Shown piece after piece: positions 11,598 through 59,488 of a DNA stretch of 64,000 bases. Positions within the stretch are counted from its first letter, which is position 1, and each line of letters begins with the position of its first letter. Source of the stretch: Escherichia phage vB_Eco_BCPEco_001; the sequence record PV295200.1. One strand, written 5' to 3'. The translations under genes were made by a program, and so were the position numbers. Under the pieces are notes generated by a model. It ran no database searches, was not told the origin of the DNA, and saw nothing but the letters and a program-made list of their open reading frames with translations.

Positions 11598-12281
<684 letters not shown>

Positions 12282-12282
<1 letters not shown>

Positions 12283-12324
12283 TTTCACAAAGTTGTTTAC
12301 ATACTGATGAGGTAGTGATACTAT
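12282..12324 (+). promoter_or_regulatory. early sigma70-type promoter (UP element TTTCACAAA, -35 GTTTACA, -10 TACTAT) with the -10 inside an inverted repeat
   Basis: aatttcacaaagttgtttacata...gaggtagtgatactattacctc; 17-nt spacer. Confidence 0.6.
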
Positions 12325-12355
12325 TACCTCATCAAAATTAATTAGGAAAATAAAA

Positions 12356-12613
12356 ATGAAAACTTTCAAAGAGTTTGCTACAAAAACTACTATCACTGAA
12401 TCTTCCCACGGTATGGAAGTAAAGCTTGGAATGGCTTTAGCTGAAGCTGAGCGTCTTTTCTCTCGTATTAAAGAACTTGCTGCTGCGGTCGATCCTTCAT
12501 CTTTTAAAGGAGACCAAACTAAAGTTAAAGCACTTTTAGCATTATGCTCCGATGCAGGAGAAATTGCTAAAAATGGTTCTAAGATGAAGAAACGATTAGA
12601 AGATTTAAAATAA
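12356..12613 (+). CDS. internal protein (ipI-like) with capsid targeting sequence
   Basis: 85 aa; N-terminal MKTFKEFATKTTITE resembles the T4 internal-protein capsid targeting sequence MKTYQEFIAE with an LxE-type cleavage site; own early promoter. Confidence 0.65.
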   Translation: MKTFKEFATKTTITESSHGMEVKLGMALAEAERLFSRIKELAAAVDPSSFKGDQTKVKALLALCSDAGEIAKNGSKMKKRLEDLK

Positions 12614-12655
12614 TTTCACAAAGTTGTTTACATAGGGTTTTAGTTGTGATACTAT
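12612..12655 (+). promoter_or_regulatory. early promoter, near-identical repeat of the 12282 promoter
   Basis: taatttcacaaagttgtttacatagggttttagttgtgatactattaccct; -35 and -10 spaced 17 nt. Confidence 0.6.
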
Positions 12656-12689
12656 TACCCTATCAAAACAAAACCAAATGGAAATCAAA

Positions 12690-12923
12690 ATGAAAACTTT
12701 CAAAGAGTTTATCGCTGAAACTGCTGATGTAAAAGTTGAGTTTATTTACACTGGCAAGAAAGATAAAATGGGTGAAATGCCTCATGGAGTTCTTCGTGAT
12801 GCATTAGATAATTTCGGTCAACTCGCCGCAGAAGATTACGGTGATAAAATTGTTGTTACTGGTCCTGCTGCAGTTATTGAAAAATGGGCAGCAGAAAATA
12901 AATCAATTTTTCGTAAAAAATAA
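12690..12923 (+). CDS. internal protein (ip-like) with capsid targeting sequence
   Basis: 77 aa from MKTFKEFIAE TADVKVE...; a possible 4-codon extension (MEIKM) would start at 12678. Confidence 0.65.
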   Translation: MKTFKEFIAETADVKVEFIYTGKKDKMGEMPHGVLRDALDNFGQLAAEDYGDKIVVTGPAAVIEKWAAENKSIFRKK

Positions 12924-12953
12924 GTTTACTTTTAGATGGGGTAGTGATACTAT
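12910..12953 (+). promoter_or_regulatory. early promoter, third copy of the hairpin-embedded -10 module
   Basis: gtttacttttagatggggtagtgatactattaccctatc. Confidence 0.5.
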
Positions 12954-12981
12954 TACCCTATCAACTATTGAGGAGAATAAA

Positions 12982-15656: not shown

Positions 15657-15769
15657 GTATCTAGGCCTTTCCGGGCCTCTCTAGGCATCATTTAGTTTAT
15701 ACCCTTTATAATATATTATCCTACCTTTTAATTGCCCCTCCTGACCCTAGAATTCCCTAAAACTTTTTA

Positions 15770-15818
15770 AAAATTTTTTCACAAAACTGTTTACAAGACT
15801 GTTCTTCTATGGTACTAT
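15770..15818 (+). promoter_or_regulatory. early promoter (UP element, -35 GTTTACA, -10 TACTAT) with conserved leader
   Basis: aaaattttttcacaaaactgtttacaagactgttcttctatggtactatacaactatcaact; same module as at 30772, 32925 and 59026. Confidence 0.6.
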
Positions 15819-15861
15819 ACAACTATCAACTACTGATACAGAAAACAACTTGGAGAACGAA

Positions 15862-16125: not shown

Positions 16126-16180
16126 GTTTACATAGGCTCATGATTGAGATATTATGAGCCCATAATTTGAGGAGAACATT

Positions 16181-19964: not shown

Positions 19965-20023
19965 AGTTGTTTACTTTCTCCTAGAATTGTGATAGTATAT
20001 TCACAGTTACTTGGAGGGATAAA

Positions 20024-20440
20024 ATGACTCGTATTAATTTGACTTTAGTATCTGAACTTGCTGATCAACATTTAATCGCAGAATACCGTGAATTGCCGCG
20101 TGTTTTTGGTATAGTTCGTAAGCATGTGGCAAACGGTAAGCGCGTTAAAGATTTTAAAATATCTTCTAAATTTATTTTAGGTTCTGGTCATGTTACTTTC
20201 TTTTACGATAAGTTAGAATTTTTGCGAAAGCGTCAATCGGACATTATAACGGAATGCTTAAAACGCGGGTTCAGTATAAAAGATACTGAAGTTCCTGACA
20301 TCAGCGATATTCCAGCAGAATGGAAAAATGATTATAACCCATGCAAATCGGCTATTAAATTGAGTCAACAACGACTCGATGAAAAAATTTTAATGAAGCC
20401 ACACTGGTATAAATACTACGGCAAAAATATTTACATTTAA
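20024..20440 (+). CDS. denV: endonuclease V (pyrimidine dimer DNA glycosylase)
   Basis: 138 aa; [17 protein letters not shown]...[11 protein letters not shown] matches T4 DenV from memory. Confidence 0.9.
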
Positions 20441-20586
20441 ATAACATGGGAATAACCTGGACCTCATGATTCTGTGAGGGATTCCCGCCAACCTGTAATA
20501 AGGTCGAGCCCAAGTGCGGTAATGGGTAAATACAGAAATGGACAATTCATGCGCCATGGAATGGCCCAAACCTAGAGAGAACAAAA

Positions 20587-21126
20587 ATGAGAACATTTTT
20601 AACTGGTCCTTATCTATCCCTGATGAATGCTTTTACACACCATTCTGATGCTAGAGTAGAAGAAATTTGTAAAAACGATTATATCCTATCATTTGAAGAC
20701 TTACTTAAACAGTATTGCACACTTCGACTAGATGGTGGACGTCAATCCGGTAAATCAATTGCTGTGACTAACTTTGCTGCTAATTGGTTGTATGATGGCG
20801 GAACAGTTATTGTTCTTTCTAATACTTCAGCTTACGCTAAAATTTCTGCAAATAACATCAAAAAGGAATTTTCGCGTTATTCTAATGATGATATACGTTT
20901 TCGTTTATTTACTGATTCTGTACGCAGTTTTATTGGTAATAAAGGAAGCAAGTTCAGAGGTTTATCGCTTTCGCGAATTTTGTATATAATTGATGAGCCT
21001 GTCAAATCTCCTGATATGGATAAGATTTATGATGCTCATATTGACACTGTACAGTACTGCTGCAATAGTAAATGCTGCATTGGCGGTATTACTCGTCCGC
21101 AGTTTTTCGTAATTGGAATGCAATGA
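20587..21126 (+). CDS. hypothetical protein with a P-loop-like motif
   Basis: 179 aa; GGRQSGKS Walker-A-like motif; C-terminal Cys cluster. Confidence 0.5.
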   Translation: MRTFLTGPYLSLMNAFTHHSDARVEEICKNDYILSFEDLLKQYCTLRLDGGRQSGKSIAVTNFAANWLYDGGTVIVLSNTSAYAKISANNIKKEFSRYSNDDIRFRLFTDSVRSFIGNKGSKFRGLSLSRILYIIDEPVKSPDMDKIYDAHIDTVQYCCNSKCCIGGITRPQFFVIGMQ

Positions 21127-21452
21127 TGACAGATACGCAACTTTTCGAATATCTTTATTTTTCGCCAAAAACTATTAAAAATAAATTGGTGAATCATTTT
21201 GAAATTTTGGCAAATAACAACGTCTTGAGCGAATTTTATCCCAAGCAATACAAATTACAAAAAGGTGTATTCAAAGGATGCAGAGTTTTGTGCACTGCTC
21301 CTAATGCAAGATTAATGAATAAAATTCCATATTTTACCATGGAATTTATTGATGGACCATTTAAAGGATTAATTACTCAAAGTTTAATGGCATATGATTC
21401 TGAGCCATTTTTAATTAAAGAACAATCTTGGATAAAATTATTTTCTAATTGA
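21123..21452 (+). CDS. hypothetical protein
   Basis: 109 aa from an ATG overlapping the upstream stop; track ORF 21072 starts earlier inside the upstream gene. Confidence 0.45.
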   Translation: MMTDTQLFEYLYFSPKTIKNKLVNHFEILANNNVLSEFYPKQYKLQKGVFKGCRVLCTAPNARLMNKIPYFTMEFIDGPFKGLITQSLMAYDSEPFLIKEQSWIKLFSN

Positions 21453-21458
21453 GGTTAT

Positions 21459-21821
21459 ATGAAAGCATATCAAATTCTTGAAGGCACACATAAAGGTACT
21501 ATTTATTTTGAAGATGGTATTCAAGCACGAATTATTGTCTCTAAAACCTTTAAAGAGGACTCTTTTGTAGACCCAGAAATTTTCTATGGTTTGCATGCCC
21601 GTGAAATTGAAATTGAGCAACAGCCTACAGTTAAAATTGAAGGTGGTCAACACCTGAACGTTAACGTTCTGCGTCGTGAAACTCTGGAAGATGCAGTTAA
21701 GCATCCGGAAAAATATCCGCAGCTGACCATCCGTGTATCCGGTTATGCAGTTCGCTTTAACTCTCTGACTCCGGAACAGCAGCGCGACGTTATCGCTCGT
21801 ACCTTTACCGAGAGTTTGTAA
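21459..21821 (+). CDS. autonomous glycyl radical cofactor (GrcA/YfiD-like)
   Basis: 120 aa; C-terminal half [63 protein letters not shown] recalled as identical to E. coli GrcA, including the glycyl-radical motif RVSGY. Confidence 0.85.
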
Positions 21822-22042
21822 TGGCAAAGATAATTATTGAAGGTTCTGAAGATGTGCTAAATGCTTTCGCCGAGTGGTTTAGTAATTCAGGCGAACAGCA
21901 ATTTAATGAAGCCTGGAATATGGGTGATATTGATGGAATTTATCCTACGACAGAAATTTCTGTTCAGGGATATGGCATTCATGAACCTATTCGTTTAGTT
22001 GAATACGATTTATGCACTGGTGAGGAAGTCAAATATGATTGA
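21821..22042 (+). CDS. hypothetical protein
   Basis: 73 aa acidic ORF, ATG overlapping the upstream stop. Confidence 0.45.
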   Translation: MAKIIIEGSEDVLNAFAEWFSNSGEQQFNEAWNMGDIDGIYPTTEISVQGYGIHEPIRLVEYDLCTGEEVKYD

Positions 22043-22301
22043 AGATATTAAGGGTTATAAGCCACATACTGAAGAGAAAATCGGTAAAGTGAATGCTATC
22101 AAAGATGCTGAAGTTCGTTTAGGACTTATCTTTGACGCTTTATATGACGAATTCTGGGAAGCACTAGATAATTGTGAAGACTATGAATTCGCGAAGAATT
22201 ATGCTGAAAGCCTCGATCAGTTAGCTATTGCTAAAACGAAACTCAAAGAAGCCAGTATGTGGGCTTGTCGTGCTGTGTTCCAACCAGAGGAAAAATACTA
22301 A
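22035..22301 (+). CDS. hypothetical protein
   Basis: 88 aa from an ATG overlapping the upstream stop (MIEDIKGY...); track start 21999 is less likely. Confidence 0.4.
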
Positions 22302-22579
22302 TGGCTCAATTAAGCGCAGGGTTTGGTTATGAGTATTATACTGCCCCTCGTCGTGTGTCTGCTGCTCCTAAGAAAATTCAAAGTCTTGATGATTTCCAGG
22401 AAGTAGTCCGTAAAGCTTTCCAGGACTATGCACGTTATCTTAAAGAAGATTCACAGGACTGTCTCGAAGAAGATGAAATTGCTTATTATGAGCAGCGTCT
22501 TGAACAGCTTAAAAACTTACATGAGGTCCGTGCAGAAGTTTCAAAGTCTATGAATAAATTGATTAGATTTAAAGAATAA
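22301..22579 (+). CDS. hypothetical protein
   Basis: 92 aa from [10 protein letters not shown]; ATG overlaps the upstream stop. Confidence 0.45.
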
Positions 22580-22582
22580 CTG

Positions 22583-22611
22583 TTTACTTTTCCTCTTGAC
22601 TGTGGTATAAT
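22583..22611 (+). promoter_or_regulatory. early promoter (-35 GTTTAC, extended -10 TGTGGTATAAT) upstream of regB
   Basis: tgtttacttttcctcttgactgtggtataat. Confidence 0.55.
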
Positions 22612-22638
22612 TTTTCTATCAGTTAAGAGGAGAATAAC

Positions 22639-26741: not shown

Positions 26742-26765
26742 AGTCTCCTTCGGGAGACTTTTTTC
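26742..26765 (+). terminator. rho-independent terminator
   Basis: agtctcc ttcg ggagact followed by tttttt. Confidence 0.65.
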
Positions 26766-26774
26766 ATTTTACCG

Positions 26775-26804
26775 GTTTACTTTCCATTTGAGCTGTGATA
26801 CTAT
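26775..26804 (+). promoter_or_regulatory. early promoter (-35 GTTTAC, -10 TACTAT)
   Basis: ggtttactttccatttgagctgtgatactatac. Confidence 0.5.
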
Positions 26805-29267: not shown

Positions 29268-29729
29268 ATGATTATTAATGAAAACTCTTGGCACTATAAA
29301 TTATTCAAATTGTTTAACGATGAATGGCAACGACCTAAGACACTATGCGCATATTTTTGGTCTATTGTTATCCCTACATTTTTCGTTTCTATTTTTGGGT
29401 GTGCTATACTCGTAGGGCTAACAATTATTTGTGCAGAAAGCTTACAACGATGGCTTATTTTCGGTAGTTTATGGACTTTGCTTCCATCAGCATTTATACT
29501 TGCCATTTTGCTTGTTTTACTTATTATTGGTTCATTTGTTATTCCTGTACATTTGCGTGAAAAATATAAAGATTATAAATGGAAAAAGGATTATGCTTTA
29601 CACGTAGAAAACATTGATAGGAAAAATAAAGGTTTACCTCCTATTCAACCCAAGAAATCGATTATCGTTGAATTTTTAAAAGCTCGTAAAGCTAAAGTAT
29701 GTCCTGTTATTGAATATAAGGCTGAATGA
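29268..29729 (+). CDS. membrane protein (2 predicted TM helices)
   Basis: 153 aa; two long hydrophobic segments followed by a basic cytoplasmic tail. Confidence 0.5.
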   Translation: MIINENSWHYKLFKLFNDEWQRPKTLCAYFWSIVIPTFFVSIFGCAILVGLTIICAESLQRWLIFGSLWTLLPSAFILAILLVLLIIGSFVIPVHLREKYKDYKWKKDYALHVENIDRKNKGLPPIQPKKSIIVEFLKARKAKVCPVIEYKAE

Positions 29730-30739
29730 TGAAAACAGTAATGAAAAGCTATTTTGGTAGCCATCTTTATGGAACTTCTACCCCAGAATCTGATGTAGAT
29801 TTTAAAGAAATCTTTGTTCCTCCTGCTCGCGATATTCTTATCGGAAATGTCAAAGAGCATATGAGTAAAAACACTAACAATACATCATCTAAAAACACTA
29901 AAGATGATATTGACCATGAACTATACAGTCTTAAATATTTCTTTAAATTAGCAGCAGATGGTGAAACTGTAGCATTAGATATGCTTCACACTCCACCTGA
30001 ACTAGTGGTTAAATCTGATTTGCCTGATGTGTGGAAGTTTATTCAAGACAACCGTTCTCGTTTTTATACGACTAACATGAAATCATATTTAGGATATGTC
30101 CGCAAGCAAGCTTCTAAATACGGTGTCAAGGGTTCTCGTTTGGCCGCATTACGTGATGTATTGAAAGTAGTTAATCAAATCCCTGAGCAATGGGTTGATT
30201 ACCAAGAAGACGGTTCCATTAAGCAGCGTCGAACTAAAGTTGAAGATATTAAGCATCGTCTTCCAGAGAACGAATTCTGTGAATGGGTATTCCATAATCA
30301 TGAGAAAACAGGCCCACAAACGTTCTACACTGTGTTGGGTCGTAAATATCAAACAACACTTTCTCTTATTGAGCTTAAGCAATCTTTGAATAAACTTGAT
30401 GCTGAATACGGCGAACGTGCTCGTAAGGCTGAAGCGAATGAGGGCATTGACTGGAAAGCTCTGAGTCATGCTTGCCGTGGTGGACTCCAACTATTGGAAA
30501 TTTACAAAACTGGCGACTTGGTTTACCCACTTCAAGACGCTCCATTTATTCTCGACGTGAAGTTGGGTAAACATCCATTTAAAACCGTTCAAGAGTTTTT
30601 GGAAGATGTGGTCGATCAAGTAGAAGCAGCATCTACTGAAGCTTCTAAGAACGGTATGCAGCAAAAAGTAGACATGGGTTTCTGGGATGACTTCCTTGAG
30701 AAGGTCTATCTTGAAAACCACCGAAGTTATTATAAATGA
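29726..30739 (+). CDS. predicted nucleotidyltransferase (pol-beta superfamily-like)
   Basis: 337 aa; N-terminal FGSHLYGTSTPESDVDF fits the hG[GS]x9-13 Dh[DE] nucleotidyltransferase signature; candidate third acidic residue in VALDMLH. Confidence 0.5.
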   Translation: MMKTVMKSYFGSHLYGTSTPESDVDFKEIFVPPARDILIGNVKEHMSKNTNNTSSKNTKDDIDHELYSLKYFFKLAADGETVALDMLHTPPELVVKSDLPDVWKFIQDNRSRFYTTNMKSYLGYVRKQASKYGVKGSRLAALRDVLKVVNQIPEQWVDYQEDGSIKQRRTKVEDIKHRLPENEFCEWVFHNHEKTGPQTFYTVLGRKYQTTLSLIELKQSLNKLDAEYGERARKAEANEGIDWKALSHACRGGLQLLEIYKTGDLVYPLQDAPFILDVKLGKHPFKTVQEFLEDVVDQVEAASTEASKNGMQQKVDMGFWDDFLEKVYLENHRSYYK

Positions 30740-30741
30740 TA

Positions 30742-30767
30742 GGGAGCCTTCGGGCTCCCTTTTTTTA
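30742..30767 (+). terminator. rho-independent terminator
   Basis: gggagcc ttcg ggctccc followed by ttttttt. Confidence 0.65.
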
Positions 30768-30771
30768 TTTC

Positions 30772-30819
30772 AAAAATTTTTCACAAAACGGTTTACAAGC
30801 ATAAAGCTTTATGGTACTA
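30772..30819 (+). promoter_or_regulatory. early promoter with conserved leader (promoter-plus-stem-loop type cassette)
   Basis: tttttcacaaaacggtttacaagcataaagctttatggtactatacaactatcaactgatacggatttggagaataaaATG; leader near-identical to 59026-59107. Confidence 0.6.
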
Positions 30820-30854
30820 TACAACTATCAACTGATACGGATTTGGAGAATAAA

Positions 30855-31823
30855 ATGAAAACTGTAACTATCAATAAGGGTATCTACTTTGGTAAAGAAA
30901 TCTCTGGAACTTTTGAGCTCTTAGGCGAATGGTTCCCAGATAATGCTCCGGTGGATGCACAAGGAGATGGTAAAGTTTTTGTTGAAATTGACGGTAAGCG
31001 TCGCGGTGTTTGGGTTTACAAATCAGACATTTCATATGATGGTGTAAAAGTTGAAGAAGTTAAAGAATCATATGAAGATATGAAAACCCGCATTAATAAA
31101 AGATTTAATGTTATGGGAATGATGACGAATGGTATTATTAACGGAAACATTCGTTCATTAATTATCTCTGGTGCGGCGGGTATTGGTAAAACGTATTCTT
31201 TAGATAAAGCTTTAAATAAAGCAAATGATATTGGATACATTGAGTATAAAAGCATTAATGGTAAAATCTCAGGTATCGGTCTTTATGAGCAGCTCTGGAA
31301 TAATCGTGAAGAGAATTCTGTCCTTTTGATTGATGATGTGGATGTTTTCTCTGATATGGACATTCTTAATCTTCTGAAAGCTGCTCTGGACACTGGAGAG
31401 ACCCGTAAAGTCTGCTGGAGCACTGCATCTTCTTACTTAGAAGAAAAAGGCATTGACCGTGAGTTTGAATTTAAAGGAACAATTGTTTTTATCACAAACG
31501 TTGATATTGACCGCGAATTAGACCGTGGTACTAAACTTGCTCCACATTTACAAGCATTAGTGTCCCGCTCAGTTTATTTAGATTTGGGTGTTCACACTAA
31601 TGAAGAAATTATGGTCAGGGTTGAAGATGTTATTCTTTCAACCGACATGATGCAAAAGCGCGGTCTTTCTGATGAAGAAACTTATAAAGCATTATCATGG
31701 ATGAAAGTCAATGTTAACCGTTTACGTAATGTTTCACTGCGTACTGCACTTTATCTTGCTGACTTTATTATGACCGACAAAAACGGTTGGGAAGAAATCG
31801 CTGAAACGGTATTGTTAAAATGA
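30855..31823 (+). CDS. P-loop ATPase (AAA-like)
   Basis: 322 aa from MKTVTINKG; Walker A GAAGIGKT, Walker B VLLIDDVD; track ORF 30687 is an upstream extension through the promoter. Confidence 0.6.
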   Translation: MKTVTINKGIYFGKEISGTFELLGEWFPDNAPVDAQGDGKVFVEIDGKRRGVWVYKSDISYDGVKVEEVKESYEDMKTRINKRFNVMGMMTNGIINGNIRSLIISGAAGIGKTYSLDKALNKANDIGYIEYKSINGKISGIGLYEQLWNNREENSVLLIDDVDVFSDMDILNLLKAALDTGETRKVCWSTASSYLEEKGIDREFEFKGTIVFITNVDIDRELDRGTKLAPHLQALVSRSVYLDLGVHTNEEIMVRVEDVILSTDMMQKRGLSDEETYKALSWMKVNVNRLRNVSLRTALYLADFIMTDKNGWEEIAETVLLK

Positions 31824-32539
31824 AAAAATATTTTACTATCTATAAAACTGAAATATTAAATTTAAAGACTGGCGTTAAGAAATATTATTATGGTCGACAT
31901 ATAACTAATAATATCAATGATTCGTATGTTGGTAGTGGAAATTATATAGAACGTGTAAAAGTGTCAAATGACCACATATTATCAAAAACGGTTTTAGAAG
32001 TTTTTGATAATTATGATAAAATGGTACAAGCTGAAATATTATATATCATGGCAGGTAAATTGAAATATGGAAAAAACTGTGTTAACCTGTCATACGGGGG
32101 TGAAGGAGGAAAGGTTGCAGATGAAACTAGAATAAAATGCAAAAAGCATTCTATAAATTTATGGAAAAATCCTAATCATATACAGCATATGAAGAAAAAG
32201 ATGAAAGAGGTCACATCCACGCCGGAAGCTAAATTAAACACTTCAATAAAAACTTCGCAACGATATAAGGACCCGGTTTTTGTTAGAAAAGTTAGTAATA
32301 TTATTAAAAAGAAACTAAGCAATCCTGCAGTAAAAGAAAAGCATATTAATGGAATTAAAGCTGCAAAGCGTTCTCATTTAACTATATGGCAGTATGAAGA
32401 TGAATTATTCGAGCTTTGGAAAGAAACTAAATGTGGATGGAGAAAATTTACAAAGGAAGCTATAAAACACGGATATCCAAATGAACCGTATCGTAGTATG
32501 GTATCAACTTTTCAGAAAAGACATTTAGAAGAATCCTAA
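31820..32539 (+). CDS. GIY-YIG homing endonuclease (Seg-like)
   Basis: 239 aa; KKYYYGRHITNNINDSYVGSG GIY-YIG-type N-terminus; basic C-terminal DNA-binding-like region; ATGA-coupled to the upstream ATPase. Confidence 0.6.
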   Translation: MKKYFTIYKTEILNLKTGVKKYYYGRHITNNINDSYVGSGNYIERVKVSNDHILSKTVLEVFDNYDKMVQAEILYIMAGKLKYGKNCVNLSYGGEGGKVADETRIKCKKHSINLWKNPNHIQHMKKKMKEVTSTPEAKLNTSIKTSQRYKDPVFVRKVSNIIKKKLSNPAVKEKHINGIKAAKRSHLTIWQYEDELFELWKETKCGWRKFTKEAIKHGYPNEPYRSMVSTFQKRHLEES

Positions 32540-32621: not shown

Positions 32622-32924
32622 ATGTTATACTCAAAGGCTCGTGAAATTTACGAAACTAAAATTAAAGAAGCTGTACTTCAATTCGCAACAACGATGCGAT
32701 GGACAAATGATTGGGAATATTCAAAAAATCATAAGAAGCCCCTGGTGACAAGAAAGGCTCATATGTTAGTGTTAATAGACCGTGAGCAGATTAAAGCCCG
32801 AGAAGCCCTCCAGAATCATAAAAAGGCTGCCTTTGAATGGTTTATGGATAACACTGCTCCTGAGACTAAGAAAGCAGTGAGCGCGTGGTTCAGTGGAAAA
32901 AATTGTGAAAGAAGTTTCTTTTAG
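32622..32924 (+). CDS. hypothetical protein
   Basis: 100 aa from the ATG with SD GGAGG. Confidence 0.45.
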   Translation: MLYSKAREIYETKIKEAVLQFATTMRWTNDWEYSKNHKKPLVTRKAHMLVLIDREQIKAREALQNHKKAAFEWFMDNTAPETKKAVSAWFSGKNCERSFF

Positions 32925-32955
32925 TGGTTTACAAGACTGTTCCTCTGTGGTACTA
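32925..32955 (+). promoter_or_regulatory. early promoter with conserved leader
   Basis: tggtttacaagactgttcctctgtggtactatacaactatcaactacggagga. Confidence 0.55.
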
Positions 32956-32984
32956 TACAACTATCAACTACGGAGGAATACAAA

Positions 32985-35895: not shown

Positions 35896-35952
35896 TTTAC
35901 TTCGCCACAAGGATGTGGTATAATGTTCTTACTTTCTACTGAGGAGATTAAT

Positions 35953-39250: not shown

Positions 39251-39736
39251 ATGATTACAGTAGATAAGTGGTTTAGAATTAATCGTGCTGATACAGGGCT
39301 GTGTAATTACTGGCCGGAACTTAGTGCAGGTACTGTCTTTAAAGTTCGTGAACTTGCAAAAGAATGCGAAGATGATATAGAACCTGATACTGGAATTATT
39401 GAAATTGAACTTTCCGACGGAAAGATTATTAACATCTATGATAAGCCAATTACATACTGGTGTTTGTGGAATACTGAATCCGTTGAAAATGGCGAAATCG
39501 AGGAAGTTGTAGAGCGAACTAATCAAGTTGTTCAGAAGCCTAAAGCCGCTTTTCAAGGTGAACGTATTTCATACGCATTAGCTAAATTAGCTGCGCAAGA
39601 AAATAACGATGGCTATGAAGGTAACCTGATGCAAGCTGCCGCAGAGTACATTGAATGGCTTGAAACTCAAATTTCTTTTTCTGACCAAATGATTCGGCAA
39701 TATAAGCGATTGCATCAAATGTTTTACAATACTTGA
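39251..39736 (+). CDS. pin: Pin-like protein (position and size of T4 pin, Lon protease inhibitor)
   Basis: 161 aa from the first in-frame ATG; sits between nrdC and 49 as pin does in T4; no motif-level confirmation. Confidence 0.45.
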   Translation: MITVDKWFRINRADTGLCNYWPELSAGTVFKVRELAKECEDDIEPDTGIIEIELSDGKIINIYDKPITYWCLWNTESVENGEIEEVVERTNQVVQKPKAAFQGERISYALAKLAAQENNDGYEGNLMQAAAEYIEWLETQISFSDQMIRQYKRLHQMFYNT

Positions 39737-39771
39737 AAAAACTCAAAATTCTTTTTCTGACAGGACATTTT

Positions 39772-39948
39772 AATGAAAACCGAATTGGTTTATACTGAAA
39801 AGTTAAATGGCGGTAAGGTTTGGAAACTTTTTATTAAAGGACATTCTACGGACCCTCATATGACCACTTGCGTAGGAACCTATTCTCGTCCTACTAAAAA
39901 GATGATTCGACAGTATAAACGATTGAATCAAATGTTTTACAATACTTA
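39772..39948 (+). CDS. hypothetical small protein sharing its C-terminal 15 aa with the upstream Pin-like protein
   Basis: 58 aa; C-terminus MIRQYKRLNQMFYNT versus Pin-like MIRQYKRLHQMFYNT; lies between an about 43-bp direct repeat. Confidence 0.35.
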
Positions 39949-39988
39949 AATAATAAATACCCTTATCTATTTAAGGTAAGGGTTTATT

Positions 39989-44020: not shown

Positions 44021-44101
44021 GACGGGCCCTCTGGGCCTTTCTTTCTTACATTCTGTATATTACCATTCTAAGCTATCGTTCCTTTCTTATCATTCCCTAA
44101 A

Positions 44102-44148
44102 ATATTTTTCACAAAGTTGTTTACAACAAGTTCAAACCATGGTATTAT
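44102..44148 (+). promoter_or_regulatory. early promoter (UP element, -35 GTTTACA, -10 TATTAT)
   Basis: aatatttttcacaaagttgtttacaacaagttcaaaccatggtattat. Confidence 0.6.
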
Positions 44149-44178
44149 TAACATATGAATTACCTTTGAGGAATTGAT

Positions 44179-47425: not shown

Positions 47426-48628
47426 ATGAAAGTATGTATTTTTATGGCTCGAGGTCTTGAAGGTTGCGGTGTAACTAAATTTTCTCTTGAGCAACGTGAT
47501 TGGTTCATTAAAAATGGCCATGAAGTAACTCTAGTTTATGCTAAAGATAAATCATTTACTCGTACAAGTTCTCATGACCACAAATCATTTTCAATTCCAG
47601 TTATTTTAGCTAAAGAATACGATAAAGCACTTAAACTGATTAATGATTGTGATATTTTAATTATTAATTCTGTTCCTGCTACTTCCGTTCAAGAAGCCAC
47701 GATTAATAACTATAAAAAAATTATTGATAACATTAAACCTTCAGTTCGTGTTGTAGTTTATCAACATGACCATTCTTCTCTTTCTTTGCGCCGAAATTTG
47801 GGATTAGAAGAAACTGTTCGTCGAGCTGATGTTATTTTTAGTCATTCTGATAATGGTGATTTTAATAAAGTTCTGATGAAAGAATGGTATCCAGAAACTG
47901 TTTCTTTGTTTGATGATATTGAAGAAGCACCGACTGTATACAACTTTCAGCCTCCTATGGATATTGCGAAGGTTCGATCAACCTACTGGAAAGATGTTTC
48001 TGAAATTAACATGAATGTCAACCGCTGGATTGGTCGTACGACTACATGGAAAGGTTTTTATCAGATGTTTGATTTTCACGAAAAACATCTTAAACCTGCT
48101 GGGCTAAGTACTATTATGGAAGGTCTGGAACGTTCTCCAGCGTTCATTCCTATTAAAGAAAAAGGAATTCCATATGAGTATTATCGTCTTCATCAAGTAG
48201 ACCAAATTAAAATTGCTCCTAATTTGCCAACGCAAATTCTTGACCGTTATGTAAATAGCGAAATGCTTGAACGCATGAGTAAATCTGGATTTGGTTATCA
48301 GCTGAGTAAGTTGGACAAAAAATATCTACAACGTTCTTTAGAATATACTCATCTCGAGCTTGGTGCATGTGGAACAATTCCAGTATTTTGGAAATCTACT
48401 GGCGAAAATTTAAAATTCCGTGTTGATAATACTCCGTTAATTTCTCATGATAGTGGTATCGTTTGGTTTGATGAAAATGACATGGAATCAGCATTTGAGC
48501 GTATTAAAGAACTGTCATCTGACCGAACTCTTTATGACCGTGAACGCGAAAAAGCTTATGAATTTTTGTATCAGCATCAAGATTCAAGCTTCTGCTTTAA
48601 AGAACAGTTTGACATTATTACAAAATAA
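47426..48628 (+). CDS. a-gt: DNA alpha-glucosyltransferase
   Basis: 400 aa; MKVCIFMARGLEGCGVTKFSLEQRDWFIKNGHEVTLVYAKDKSFTR is near-identical to T4 a-gt from memory; followed by the hairpin agggcttcggccct. Confidence 0.9.
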   Translation: MKVCIFMARGLEGCGVTKFSLEQRDWFIKNGHEVTLVYAKDKSFTRTSSHDHKSFSIPVILAKEYDKALKLINDCDILIINSVPATSVQEATINNYKKIIDNIKPSVRVVVYQHDHSSLSLRRNLGLEETVRRADVIFSHSDNGDFNKVLMKEWYPETVSLFDDIEEAPTVYNFQPPMDIAKVRSTYWKDVSEINMNVNRWIGRTTTWKGFYQMFDFHEKHLKPAGLSTIMEGLERSPAFIPIKEKGIPYEYYRLHQVDQIKIAPNLPTQILDRYVNSEMLERMSKSGFGYQLSKLDKKYLQRSLEYTHLELGACGTIPVFWKSTGENLKFRVDNTPLISHDSGIVWFDENDMESAFERIKELSSDRTLYDREREKAYEFLYQHQDSSFCFKEQFDIITK

Positions 48629-48804
48629 AGGGCTTCGGCCCTTTAGCTTTATACGGAGTTTGATATAATGATATTTCTTGGATATGTGATACTTTTTCTC
48701 GCATTTTATCTATTCACTAGAGCATGTTGGATTGGGTTCTTTAGCACTCCAGATGGATTTATTTCAATAATTTTATTTTGCATTTCAATGACGGTTCTTG
48801 ATAT

Positions 48805-49824: not shown

Positions 49825-50084
49825 CTTTTGATGAATTTAAAAATGTTATGATGAGTCAGCATTTTGAATGCGAAGTAAAAGATGATATTGGGCATAAAGA
49901 AATTATTGAATATTGGTTTGAACCACTAGAGGTTGAAGATAATTGTATTAAAAAGGTTACGGTCTGCACTGACTGGGCTGTATCTTTTAACTTCAACATT
50001 TTAGATAATGACACACCTAAATCATTACAAGATATGGCTGTATCTTGTATTAAGGATGCATACTGTGAAGTTTTCGACATTTGA
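49821..50084 (+). CDS. hypothetical protein
   Basis: 87 aa, ATGA-coupled to gene 47. Confidence 0.5.
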   Translation: MTFDEFKNVMMSQHFECEVKDDIGHKEIIEYWFEPLEVEDNCIKKVTVCTDWAVSFNFNILDNDTPKSLQDMAVSCIKDAYCEVFDI

Positions 50085-50271
50085 CATTAATGATGAATTC
50101 ATAGCAAACATTGATTATACCGAAGAAGATTCTAGATATGTTGGAATAATTTATATTACATCAAAAACAGCACAAGGTGTTGTTTGCATGGCTGAATTTG
50201 ATGAATACTTTTTAGATTATGATGATATGATAGAATGGTCTAAAAGATACATTAAAAGGAATCTTTTGTGA
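50056..50271 (+). CDS. hypothetical protein whose 5' end is repeated at the start of the downstream HNH gene
   Basis: 71 aa from an ATG (MHTVKFSTFDINDEF...); the track start 50008 is further upstream; 19-nt sequence ttgacattaatgatgaatt is repeated at 50284. Confidence 0.4.
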   Translation: MHTVKFSTFDINDEFIANIDYTEEDSRYVGIIYITSKTAQGVVCMAEFDEYFLDYDDMIEWSKRYIKRNLL

Positions 50272-51122
50272 AGAATTTTAAACTTGACATTAATGATGAA
50301 TTTTTAATAAAGGAATTAGTTGAAAAATTAGCGTTGAGTGAAGAAGACGCCAAGTCTTACATTAATTTTATTTCTATGAATTCAACTGTTAAAACTCCAG
50401 GTAAAACGGAAGCACACCACGTGCTTCCTAAATCAATATTTCCTGAATATTTAAAATCTACATGGAATTTAGTTAATTTAAGTCATTTTAATCATTTTAA
50501 AGCACACTTCTTATTAGCAAAAGGTAAAAATGGAAAAATGCTAAATGCTTTAAATAGAATGATGTCAGGGAAAACATATAAAAATTTATCTTTAGCCGAA
50601 GTTGATTTAATAGCTGCTGAATATAGTTTTATAAAACAAGATGTAAGTGACACAATATCAAAAAGGCTTCAACAGTATTATTCAAATCCGCAAAATAGAA
50701 ATGCTGCTAGAGAAAGGGCATTAAAATATTTTTCAGTAGCAAAAAATAGGAAAGATAACAAAGAAAGATTAAATAATTTTAAAACAAAACAAAAAATTTC
50801 AATGGCTTCAAGGGAATGGTTTAATAACGAAGAAAACAAAATTAAACACCAAAAGGCTGTTCGTGCTGCTTTATCAAAACCTGAATATAAAATAGCTATA
50901 TCAAATTCAGTAGCTGCTAGTTGGAAAAATCCGGAGATTAGAAAAGCTCATATAGCATCTAGACGAAAAGGCTATCATTGGGATAATAAAGATAAATTGT
51001 ATGAATTGTGGATATCATATAATCGTCCTAAACATGTGATGTTTAGGAAAATGTTAGTTAAGAATGGATATCCAATAGAGGCTTCATTACAGGCTTTAGT
51101 TAAAGAATTTTCTTCATTGTGA
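50268..51122 (+). CDS. HNH homing endonuclease, free-standing between genes 47 and 46
   Basis: 284 aa; HNH-like core KTEAHHVLPKS...NLVNLSHFNHFKAHF; basic C-terminal half; apparent GTG start; N-terminus KNFKLDINDEF repeats the upstream gene N-terminus. Confidence 0.6.
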   Translation: MKNFKLDINDEFLIKELVEKLALSEEDAKSYINFISMNSTVKTPGKTEAHHVLPKSIFPEYLKSTWNLVNLSHFNHFKAHFLLAKGKNGKMLNALNRMMSGKTYKNLSLAEVDLIAAEYSFIKQDVSDTISKRLQQYYSNPQNRNAARERALKYFSVAKNRKDNKERLNNFKTKQKISMASREWFNNEENKIKHQKAVRAALSKPEYKIAISNSVAASWKNPEIRKAHIASRRKGYHWDNKDKLYELWISYNRPKHVMFRKMLVKNGYPIEASLQALVKEFSSL

Positions 51123-53518: not shown

Positions 53519-54205
53519 ATGAAACTGTCTAAAGATACTACTGCTCTGCTTAAAAATTTCGCTACTATTAACTCTGGTATTATGCTTAAATCCGGTCAAT
53601 TTATTATGACTCGCGCAGTTAATGGTACAACTTATGCGGAAGCAAATATTTCTGACGTTATTGACTTTGATGTAGCAATTTACGATTTGAACGGTTTTCT
53701 CGGTATTCTGTCTCTAGTTAATGATGATGCAGAAATTTCCCAGTCAGAAGATGGAAATATTAAAATTGCTGATGCCCGCTCAACAATTTTTTGGCCAGCA
53801 GCCGATCCGAGTACAGTAGTTGCTCCTAATAAACCAATTCCATTCCCGGTAGCATCTGTTGTTACTGAAATTAAAGCTGAAGACCTTCAACAACTGTTGC
53901 GTGTATCTCGTGGTCTGCAAATTGATACAATTGCTATCACGGTAAAAGAAGGTAAAATCGTAATTAACGGTTTTAATAAAGTAGAAGATTCTGCTCTGAC
54001 CCGTGTTAAATATTCTTTGACTCTTGGTGATTATGATGGTGAAAATACATTTAATTTCATTATCAATATGGCAAATATGAAAATGCAACCAGGAAATTAT
54101 AAACTTCTGCTTTGGGCAAAAGGTAAACAAGGCGCTGCTAAATTTGAAGGTGAACATGCGAATTATGTAGTAGCTCTTGAAGCTGATTCTACCCACGATT
54201 TTTAA
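53519..54205 (+). CDS. 45: sliding clamp gp45
   Basis: 228 aa; MKLSKDTTALLKNFATINSGIMLKSGQFIMTRAVNGTTYAEANISDVIDFDVAIYDLNGFLGILSLV matches T4 gp45 from memory; followed by the hairpin agggcttcggccct. Confidence 0.9.
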   Translation: MKLSKDTTALLKNFATINSGIMLKSGQFIMTRAVNGTTYAEANISDVIDFDVAIYDLNGFLGILSLVNDDAEISQSEDGNIKIADARSTIFWPAADPSTVVAPNKPIPFPVASVVTEIKAEDLQQLLRVSRGLQIDTIAITVKEGKIVINGFNKVEDSALTRVKYSLTLGDYDGENTFNFIINMANMKMQPGNYKLLLWAKGKQGAAKFEGEHANYVVALEADSTHDF

Positions 54206-54256
54206 TAAAGGGCTTCGGCCCTTTATAATTTACACTAAAACTTGAATGAGGAAATT

Positions 54257-58926: not shown

Positions 58927-58939
58927 TAGAATAAATCTA

Positions 58940-58960
58940 GGGACCTCCGGGTCCCTTTTT
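58940..58960 (+). terminator. rho-independent terminator after gene 43
   Basis: gggacc tccg ggtccc followed by ttttt. Confidence 0.65.
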
Positions 58961-59025
58961 CATACAAGTAATATAAATCTATACTTATGAAAAACAGATG
59001 ATTCTGGACCTTTAGAATTCCCTAA

Positions 59026-59073
59026 AAATTTTTTCACAAAGTTGTTTACATCCCTGTTCTTCCATGGTACTAT
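59026..59073 (+). promoter_or_regulatory. early promoter with conserved leader (near-identical to 30772-30854)
   Basis: aaaaattttttcacaaagttgtttacatccctgttcttccatggtactatacaactatcaactgatacggatttggagaatgaaATG. Confidence 0.6.
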
Positions 59074-59107
59074 ACAACTATCAACTGATACGGATTTGGA
59101 GAATGAA

Positions 59108-59488
59108 ATGAAAATCGCTATTTTGGTTATTGCATTAGGTCTTACTGGTTGTGTAGCTCAAGGACCGGTAGTAAATCAGTCTGATGCAGGAAAAATTGTA
59201 AACTGTTCAAGCAAATTTTATAATCCTAATGTCAAGTGTTATAAAGAAGCTCCAAAGCAAACAGTAGAACAAATGCAGGCGAATTTTGACGAAGCTATTC
59301 GTCCAGATGAATCTGCTCAAGCATATCGTAATTCAGATGTAATTACACGCGAAGAAAAAATTGAAAACTACTGCGCTGAACTTTGGGCAAATTGGGCTAA
59401 TAATTACCAGTGGCGTACAGGTAAAAATGCTCCGATGGAGTATGTAGTGAATTCTTATAATTCATGTGTAAAAAATTTGACTAAGTGA
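59108..59488 (+). CDS. putative lipoprotein
   Basis: 126 aa from MKIAILVIALGLTGC (lipobox LTGC); the track ORF 59042 is an extension through the promoter. Confidence 0.5.
   Translation: MKIAILVIALGLTGCVAQGPVVNQSDAGKIVNCSSKFYNPNVKCYKEAPKQTVEQMQANFDEAIRPDESAQAYRNSDVITREEKIENYCAELWANWANNYQWRTGKNAPMEYVVNSYNSCVKNLTK

Follow-up and report, generated by a model that had tools for sequence, protein, structure and literature searches.

The window analysed here is a stretch of 64,000 nucleotides from Escherichia phage vB_Eco_BCPEco_001 (PV295200.1). Judged by its sequence it is a Tequatrovirus, a T4-like coliphage or Shigella phage. The 3-kb stretch around the nrdC.10 unit is 100% identical to Shigella phage vB_Shso_BCPShso_001 and 96-98% identical to many Tequatroviruses, T6, RB32, RB14 and AR1 among them, and the window is collinear, as the reverse complement, with T4 coordinates 86244-21757. 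On the T4 map, a terminator, promoter and leader at 30742-30857 separate nrdC.11 from nrdC.10, and a second such unit, at 58940-59110, stands between gene 43 (DNA polymerase) and imm.1. Related copies are found 5' of e.8 (15790), nrdC.8 (32928) and 55.6 (44120), and at 12296, 12627 and 12925 in the internal-protein locus adjoining 57B. The shorter copies (15790, 32928) and the promoter-only copies (12296, 12627, 44120) that an earlier note on this DNA had listed are thus real; the one at 12925 is an additional promoter-only copy. On the collinear map, the cassette positions are orthologous to intergenic regions 5' of T4 early genes, and T4 carries near-identical sequences at the positions orthologous to the window copies.

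Two intergenic units with a shared promoter and leader

All elements that the earlier note had named in the nrdC.10 unit are present. The hairpin GGGAGCC-UUCG-GGCUCCC (30742-30759; -16.2 kcal/mol, z -3.6) is followed by seven T, the UP-like tract tttttcacaaaa, GTTTACA at 30791-30797, a spacer of 17 nt, TG at 30812-30813 and TACTAT at 30815-30820, from which a transcription start near A30827 is predicted. The promoter is identical or nearly identical across T4, RB32, T6, PST and T2. On the imm.1 side, the hairpin GGGACC-UCCG-GGUCCC folds with -13.9 kcal/mol, and no shuffled sequence folded as well as either hairpin. The upstream block of the imm.1 promoter, tagaattccctaaaaa, is common to the e.8 and 55.6 promoters.

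A 39-nt sequence, GGTACTATACAACTATCAACTGATACGGATTTGGAGAAT, which runs from GGTACTAT in the -10 region through the leader, occurs exactly twice, at 30813 and 59066, and gave no match in 100 shuffles. Pairwise alignment of the two copies shows 50 of 51 positions to be identical in the segment that begins shortly before the -10 hexamer and extends to ATGAAAA. The near-identity expected of the main copies therefore holds from the -10 through the start codon, but extends to neither the spacer nor the terminator. That the whole unit recurs "almost base-for-base" was an overstatement: over promoter and leader (30770-30861 against 59023-59114) 76 of 92 positions match, with the mismatches concentrated in the -35/-10 spacer, where 11 of 17 positions differ, and the hairpins are not homologous, differing in both stem and loop (UUCG versus UCCG). 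The distance from hairpin end to -35 hexamer is 31 nt at nrdC.10 and 88 nt at imm.1. Since the terminators are non-homologous and unequally spaced, the repeated unit consists of promoter and leader, and the terminator is an analogous neighbour.

Table 1. Coordinates of the promoters, leaders, terminators and associated features in the window.
Feature	Position	Strand	Remarks
Intrinsic terminator after nrdC.11	30741..30766	+	8-bp stem, UUCG loop, then seven T
nrdC.10 early promoter	30767..30820	+	A/T-rich UP-like tract, -35, spacer, TG, -10
Discriminator and 5' leader of nrdC.10	30821..30854	+	Shine-Dalgarno inside GGAGAATAAAA at 30845-30855
nrdC.10 homologue, 322 aa	30855..31823	+	weak P-loop/AAA-like match
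Intrinsic terminator after gene 43 (DNA polymerase)	58939..58960	+	7-bp stem, UCCG loop
imm.1 early promoter	59013..59073	+	TTTACA 59045-59050, TACTAT 59068-59073
imm.1 leader	59074..59107	+	nrdC.10 leader except for one A-to-G; imm.1 start 59108
e.8 early promoter and leader	15748..15861	+	TTTACA 15790
nrdC.8 early promoter and short leader	32906..32984	+	TTTACA 32928; without hairpin
Early promoter 5' of 55.6	44088..44178	+	TTTACA 44120; only UP and -35 part in common
Internal-protein locus, three tandem promoter-leader units	12267..12981	+	TTTACA 12296, 12627, 12925
Second true terminator and promoter composite	26742..26804	+	UUCG hairpin 26742-26759, TTTACT 26776
Early promoter and leader heading denV (P19970)	19970..20023	+	promoter motif before start codon
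regB early promoter	22583..22638	+	partner of P19970 in T6 deletion junction
e.7-slot early promoter	16127..16180	+	-35 is left breakpoint of e.7 replacement (PST, T2, RB32)
Generic early promoter, nrdC.4 homologue	35896..35952	+	in neither subfamily

Scanning the window for TTTACW-N15-17-TAnnAT returned 15 matches (4.1 ± 2.0 expected). Every one of them has a 17-nt spacer and lies on the + strand, which is the strand that codes for the early genes. Thirteen were taken as credible promoters because each lies just 5' of a start codon. A generic sigma-70 scan was non-discriminating in the AT-rich window (44 matches, 36.7 expected). In an alignment of eight sequences, GTTTAC and TA.TAT are invariant and the spacer is fixed at 17 nt; an A/T-rich UP tract, aaaaatttttcacaaa, lies 5' of the -35, and the -10 is preceded by TG (extended -10, TGn) at 30792, 32928 and 59045. 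By these sequence features the units match T4 early promoters (UP element, GTTTAC, 17-nt spacer, TGn, TAyTAT). The latter are sigma-70 promoters with UP, -35, TGn and -10 elements plus extra conserved positions, which outcompete host promoters and some of which are boosted by the injected Alt ADP-ribosyltransferase (PMC2988021; PMC1524935). The T4 orthologues of imm.1, nrdC.8, nrdC.10 and e.8 are early at the RNA and protein level in time-resolved omics data (PMC9697503 supplement). T4 has a further copy in the denB-ndd region; its -10 is the same, its leader is near-identical but for one 3-nt insertion, and X75802 annotates it as a promoter, with -35 and -10 signals marked.

The copies resemble each other more closely than a common promoter consensus requires. 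Over 82 nt, pairwise identity among the 13 promoters is generally about 0.50-0.60; it reaches 0.58-0.80 within the group 15790/30792/32928/44120/59045 and 0.63-0.77 within 12296/12627/12925, and this higher identity within groups indicates a resemblance beyond the consensus. A repeat finder likewise returned a 64-nt promoter block present six times and, in the internal-protein locus, another family, whose units form a second subfamily (GTGATACTATTACCyyATCAA) with one small gene behind each. The units run on through the Shine-Dalgarno sequence to the start codon of the downstream gene. The e.8 leader shares ACAACTATCAACT(ACT)GATAC and diverges afterwards, and in its upstream part the nrdC.8 copy overlaps the 3' end of the nrdC.9 coding sequence. 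Copies are numerous and located preferentially amid variable accessory genes; as noted earlier, the downstream genes are mostly without known function.

Stem-loops are an inconstant component of the family. A hairpin stands directly upstream of two of the 13 credible early promoters (26776 and 30792) and of none of the e.8, nrdC.8, 55.6 and internal-protein copies, and folding detected no significant stem-loop just 5' of the imm.1, e.8 and 55.6 promoters. C(UUCG)G tetraloop hairpins were reportedly described in T4 intercistronic regions by Tuerk et al. in 1988; those at 30741 and 26742 and in the repeat family D6 are of this kind, and the imm.1-side loop is UCCG.

The leaders themselves are unstructured. 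The four that were folded gave z-scores of about 0, and a structured RNA element is therefore rejected. At the gathering threshold, an Rfam search of the whole window returned 8 tRNAs only, and permissive scans of both main cassettes gave chance-level matches far below the family thresholds. The Shine-Dalgarno sequence in the leaders is GGAG, and in the nrdC.10 leader GGAGAATAAAA agrees in 11 of 11 positions with GGAGRAYARAA, the strong RegB/S1 cleavage consensus of T4 early mRNAs (PMC3014915); the imm.1 and e.8 leaders agree in 10 of 11. As in the RegB/S1 sites of T4 early mRNAs, the consensus spans the Shine-Dalgarno sequence; the sites in the window are known from sequence, and cleavage by RegB is predicted. 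Taken together, a terminator where present, a strong promoter, an open ribosome-binding site and a RegB site look like a module for immediate but transient expression.

Gene content behind the promoters

The earlier note had asked whether the genes flanked by cassettes are fixed in position. They are not: both main sites are insertion hot spots with alternative modules. The site between nrdC.11 and nrdC.10 is empty in the window and carries modules A, B, C, A+B or B+C in other Tequatroviruses; the site between gene 43 and imm.1 carries one of two alternative ORFs, or none. Counts at these loci refer to about 500-700 database records.

In T2, nrdC.11 and nrdC.10 are separated by an extra 486-nt ORF, annotated as an ADP-ribosylase in some records. 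On either side of it stands a copy of hairpin, T-run and 'atttcaaaaatttttcacaaa', a duplication of the terminator and UP blocks, and the T2-type arrangement is covered to at least 80% at one place in 36 of 586 records. The same site holds a 150-nt ORF and a DUF4031 ORF in SG1, a 201-nt ORF in JLBYU24, both in Geo, and the T2-type ORF together with the SG1-type module in VEc20. The nrdC.10-type promoter stays beside nrdC.11 in SG1, JLBYU24 and Geo and heads the SG1-type module in VEc20. In all four, the sequence switches to the leader of the inserted module directly after ...TACTATACAACTATCAA (CTATCAA), and in three of them the next gene, nrdC.10 included, has its own early promoter.

At the imm.1 site, a 252-nt ORF driven from an nrdC.8-type spacer and leader is found in T2 and in a further 30 records; this arrangement is covered to at least 80% at one place in 31 of 522 records. 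AR1 has a different, 237-nt ORF, for which a matching span of ~790 nt is found in many other records and whose leader is identical to the PST nrdC.10 leader. Behind either ORF, imm.1 has a different ribosome-binding region, gaggaaattattATGAAAATCGC. Hence, the arrangement of leader and imm.1 in the window looks like a fusion, its putative junction lying at the shared ATGAAAAT.

Similar turnover is seen elsewhere in the region. The internal-protein locus comprises one to three promoter-leader-gene units, whose number and identity vary among T4, RB32, T6, PST, T2 and the window. The gene headed by promoter P19970 is ipIII in T4 and in PST, but Ip4 in RB32; the slot behind it as a whole holds ipIII, ipII and denV in T4, denV alone in the window, Ip4 in RB32 and T2 (with denV replaced in T2), and IpIII plus IpIV in PST. 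T6 has lost 2.6 kb between P19970 and the regB promoter at 22583 (window positions), and the resulting e|regB junction lies inside tgTTTACTTT, which is common to the -35 elements of both promoters; it is found in three T6 records and in no other phage.

Generally, when the window is compared with the five genomes, a breakpoint falls inside a cassette at about 6 of ~25 indel loci, with cassettes making up ~4% of the region; as indels of whole genes necessarily break in intergenic DNA, this enrichment is partly expected and indicative only. Of the other loci, at least six are indels of homing endonucleases or introns; those remaining are at gene boundaries elsewhere. Some junctions share only 8-11 nt of identity, which fits microhomology-mediated events as well as it fits classical homologous recombination. 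Deletion of nrdC.10 and nrdC.9 via their flanking cassettes (30792 and 32928) was searched for with a synthetic nrdC.11|nrdC.8 junction and found in 0 of 682 records. Either recombination between copies is rare, or this particular product is selected against.

Exchange between copies and the explanations for it

The comparison of variants covered the window, T4, RB32, T6, PST and T2, together with IMG/VR contigs; a 21-mer scan of the latter gave matches on 7 contigs only, too few for population statistics. Each of two spacer variants, AAGACTGTTCTTC (AAGACTG...) and ATCCCTGTTCTTC (ATCCCTG...), is found at the e.8 promoter in some phages and at the imm.1 promoter in others, and their assignment in T4 is the opposite of that in the window. 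PST has a derived 'gaattcATTaaaa' ('gaattcATT') 5' of both promoters; in the window, T4 and RB32 the triplet concerned reads CCT at imm.1, and CCC or another variant at e.8. In PST, moreover, the leader of nrdC.10 is a hybrid with that of e.8, and the T4 imm.1 leader contains the 3-nt insertion ACT that is typical of the e.8 leader. Polymorphism shared between copies about 43 kb apart points to non-allelic conversion. Thus, the copies do not simply diverge like neutral intergenic sequence, as the earlier note had considered they might; spacer and leader variants have been exchanged between paralogous copies.

Non-allelic conversion is also the probable reason for the low similarity of orthologous e.8 and imm.1 cassettes between phages (0.86-0.95, compared with 0.96-0.99 for adjacent coding sequence). 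The cassettes are thus not better conserved than the flanking genes, the opposite of what promoter selection alone would predict.

We therefore read the units as early-expression modules that also serve as recombination substrates for gene shuffling, with a probability of roughly 85%. A sigma-70 early promoter would recruit the unmodified host RNA polymerase as the DNA enters, and the upstream hairpin and U-run, where present, would end the previous transcript and insulate the unit. The unstructured leader with its GGAG would allow efficient translation at first and be shut off once RegB appears. Near-identical blocks of 50-90 nt in the same orientation, in a highly recombining genome, are expected to act as recombination substrates; conversion between copies may occur, as may the insertion, replacement or deletion of genes that lie behind or between them. 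That the nrdC.10 and imm.1 leaders are almost identical would then result from exchange between copies. Observed directly in the sequence are its features, the chimeric junctions and a patchy distribution of shared variants; the T4 literature supplies the RegB consensus, the activity of the promoters and the evidence that the orthologues are expressed early. We infer homologous recombination, over another process, as the cause of the exchange. The proposal of the earlier note, that these are PeSL-type early promoters driving modular shuffling, is supported by the six related genomes and the about 500-700 records.

The most serious competitor, although an improbable one, is that selection alone produced the likeness, through the demands of RNA polymerase, ribosome and RegB, and that the variable neighbouring genes are coincidental. 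In its favour, the polymerase contacts (UP, -35, TGn, -10) are the best conserved parts and the non-contacted 17-nt spacer differs between the main copies; GGAGAATAAAA is a functional consensus, and positions beyond the hexamers are common to all T4 early promoters. However, 20 identical leader nucleotides (CTGATACGGATTTGGAG...) are needed by no known factor, and two distinct promoter subfamilies coexist. Alternative spacer and leader variants segregate across loci, with the derived PST triplet present in two copies, and the inserted genes are bordered by chimeric junctions and duplicated flanks, none of which selection by these factors would account for.

A shared regulatory leader, serving as operator in the joint control of nrdC.10, imm.1 and others by a trans-acting protein or small RNA, would explain why the same leader precedes several unrelated genes, and its 3' half is indeed a perfect or near-perfect strong RegB/S1 site. 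RegB, however, requires 11 nt only. With no predicted structure, no Rfam family, and a 3-nt insertion and substitutions between close relatives at the same gene, we regard this explanation as quite unlikely.

That the cassettes are att-like sites of a mobile element with a dedicated recombinase is highly improbable: T4-type phages are strictly lytic, the junctions vary in position (at the -35, after CTATCAA, at ATGAAAAT) where a fixed core would give only one, the inserted modules contain no integrase-like or recombinase gene, and the 'attL' label on the imm.1 leader in the T6 RefSeq record marks the repeated leader sequence without a supporting note. In favour of such sites one may count the existence of that 'attL' label and the PeSL mini-circles reported for RB49/phi1 (PMC2839356).

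Beyond the reading of the units as early-expression modules and recombination substrates, they may form a concertedly evolving promoter-leader family in which frequent non-allelic gene conversion over tens of kb reassorts UP block, spacer, leader and gene. Shared polymorphisms, hybrid leaders and the presence of the same -10 and leader unit before at least five different genes at loci compared across related phages, all drawn from a handful of genomes, are compatible with such a family; we put it forward tentatively and consider it rather doubtful in this strong form.

Relation to known elements and significance

Such units have been described before, under the name of T4 early promoters and, in the T4/PST group, as PeSLs. 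Compared with T4 early promoters (Pe), the window copies have the same -35 GTTTAC, 17-nt spacer, TGn, TAnnAT and A/T-rich UP tract, in the same orientation and at orthologous positions, without substantial difference, except that the two subfamilies in the window share more, leader included, than the consensus needs. PeSLs were described in the T4/PST pair by Comeau 2014, with the consensus TTTACW-N17-TAYWAT, which the window copies fit; the same paper links them to the internal-protein locus observations of Repoila et al. 1994 and attributes a contribution to homing endonucleases and ordinary recombination as well (PMC4122927). Arbiol 2010 had placed terminator/early-promoter composites at indels between RB49 and phi1 and detected the mini-circles by inverse PCR (PMC2839356).

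The window agrees with these accounts in every respect that sequence comparison could address. Many copies lie amid accessory genes and at indels between close relatives, with junctions inside the element, and where a hairpin is directly upstream they form a composite of terminator, early promoter, Shine-Dalgarno sequence and start codon. The copies differ in that a stem-loop stands directly upstream of only 2 of the 13 window promoters, the repeat being promoter plus leader, and in that exchange of variants between distant copies is prominent, whereas the excerpts of the PeSL papers used here treat indels and mini-circles (PMC2839356, PMC4122927). The shuffling of T-even internal-protein genes (Repoila et al. 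1994, as cited in PMC4122927) resembles the units at 12267-12981 in their variable number and identity; the nrdC.10 and imm.1 copies, in contrast, belong to the other subfamily, and their slots hold genes other than those for internal proteins. As the principle and its elements are published, the window adds well-documented examples and no new concept, and the catalogue, at population level, of the modules that alternate at the nrdC.11|nrdC.10 and 43|imm.1 sites illustrates this usefully without being a discovery. For annotation, the cassettes mark sites of variable genes, and the repeats should not be read as att sites.

For the biology of these phages, the cassettes explain how acquired accessory genes, many of which probably serve in anti-defence or host takeover, are at once correctly expressed, and why such genes come and go at fixed slots. 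If the copies do evolve as a concerted family, a new ORF would instantly inherit immediate-early expression together with RegB-mediated shut-off, and the cassettes together would form a 'plug-in socket' system that maintains itself, comparable in function to integron cassettes but run by general recombination.

Occupants around nrdC.10

In the slot between nrdC.11 and nrdC.10, which is empty in the window, T2 carries an extra ORF, a putative ADP-ribosylase or NAD-protein ADP-ribosyltransferase by the annotation of some records. The T2-type arrangement is covered to at least 80% by a single place in 36 of the 586 records. Between nrdC.10 and nrdC.9 the window holds a 239-aa ORF that T4 and PST lack. 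RB32 and T6 have it too, and their annotation calls it a seg-like or intron-like endonuclease. It gave no Pfam match at E ≤ 0.001, and its ends lie outside the promoter cassettes.

PV295201, the top database hit, agrees with the window at 100% identity over 29500-32500. Over 23600-48500 the identity is only 98.9%, in four pieces, so the window is not simply this record.

Hairpins and short repeats

The hairpins and repeats are listed below with the other features. RB32 has an additional gene, RB32ORF133c, upstream of e.8, and a terminator hairpin lies on either side of this gene, in two copies that are 92% identical. Hence, terminator stem-loops too, and not promoters alone, can bracket an inserted gene. 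The window also has a family of GGGCTTCGGCCC-type UUCG hairpins, which probably serve as terminators or stabilisers between cistrons; two of the copies match each other without a difference over 22 nt.

Two pairs of short local direct repeats were also observed, both adjoining segments unlike T4. The segment next to the 45-nt pair is 861 nt long and missing from T4, RB32 and PST.

Positions of the features discussed in this part
Feature	Position	Length, identity	Location
denV	window 20024-20440		directly 3' of promoter 19970
Segment missing in T6	window 19982-22581; T6 locus L027 around 37622	2.6 kb	promoter 19970 to regB promoter 22583
T2 extra ORF	T2 locus L029 29297-29782		nrdC.11 to nrdC.10
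239-aa ORF	window 31820-32539	239 aa	nrdC.10 to nrdC.9
Local direct repeat	window 39689-39740, 39902-39953	52 nt, 88%	by the pin region
Local direct repeat	window 50064-50108, 50267-50311	45 nt, 78%
GGGCTTCGGCCC-type UUCG hairpins	window 48624-48645, 54204-54225; also 17158, 44985, 56151
Duplicated terminator hairpin	RB32 locus L026 43909-43944, 44464-44499	36 nt, 92%	around RB32ORF133c
'attL' misc_feature	T6 NC_054907 24507-24546 (L027 1123-1162)		imm.1 leader
Two-codon frame	window 59103-59111		overlaps imm.1 start codon at 59108

The imm.1 leader

The RefSeq record of T6 places an 'attL' label on the imm.1 leader. As the labelled sequence is the repeated promoter-leader, which occurs a second time at nrdC.10 in the T6 genome, the label is probably a misreading of this repeat. 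In the window, the sole A-to-G difference of the imm.1 leader gives rise to a two-codon frame, ATG AAA TGA.

The slot behind promoter 19970

The early promoter at 19970 is directly followed by denV in the window. In T4, ipIII and ipII precede denV, in RB32 and T2 its position is occupied by Ip4, and the counterpart in PST consists of IpIII plus IpIV. denV thus behaves as one alternative occupant of a promoter-headed slot.

T6 lacks the entire stretch from this promoter to that of regB, and with it denV and vs.8-vs.3. The deletion junction lies within tgTTTACTTT, which is common to both promoters, and was found in three T6 records and in no other phage. The classically higher UV sensitivity of T6 and T2 compared with T4 would agree with the loss of denV.
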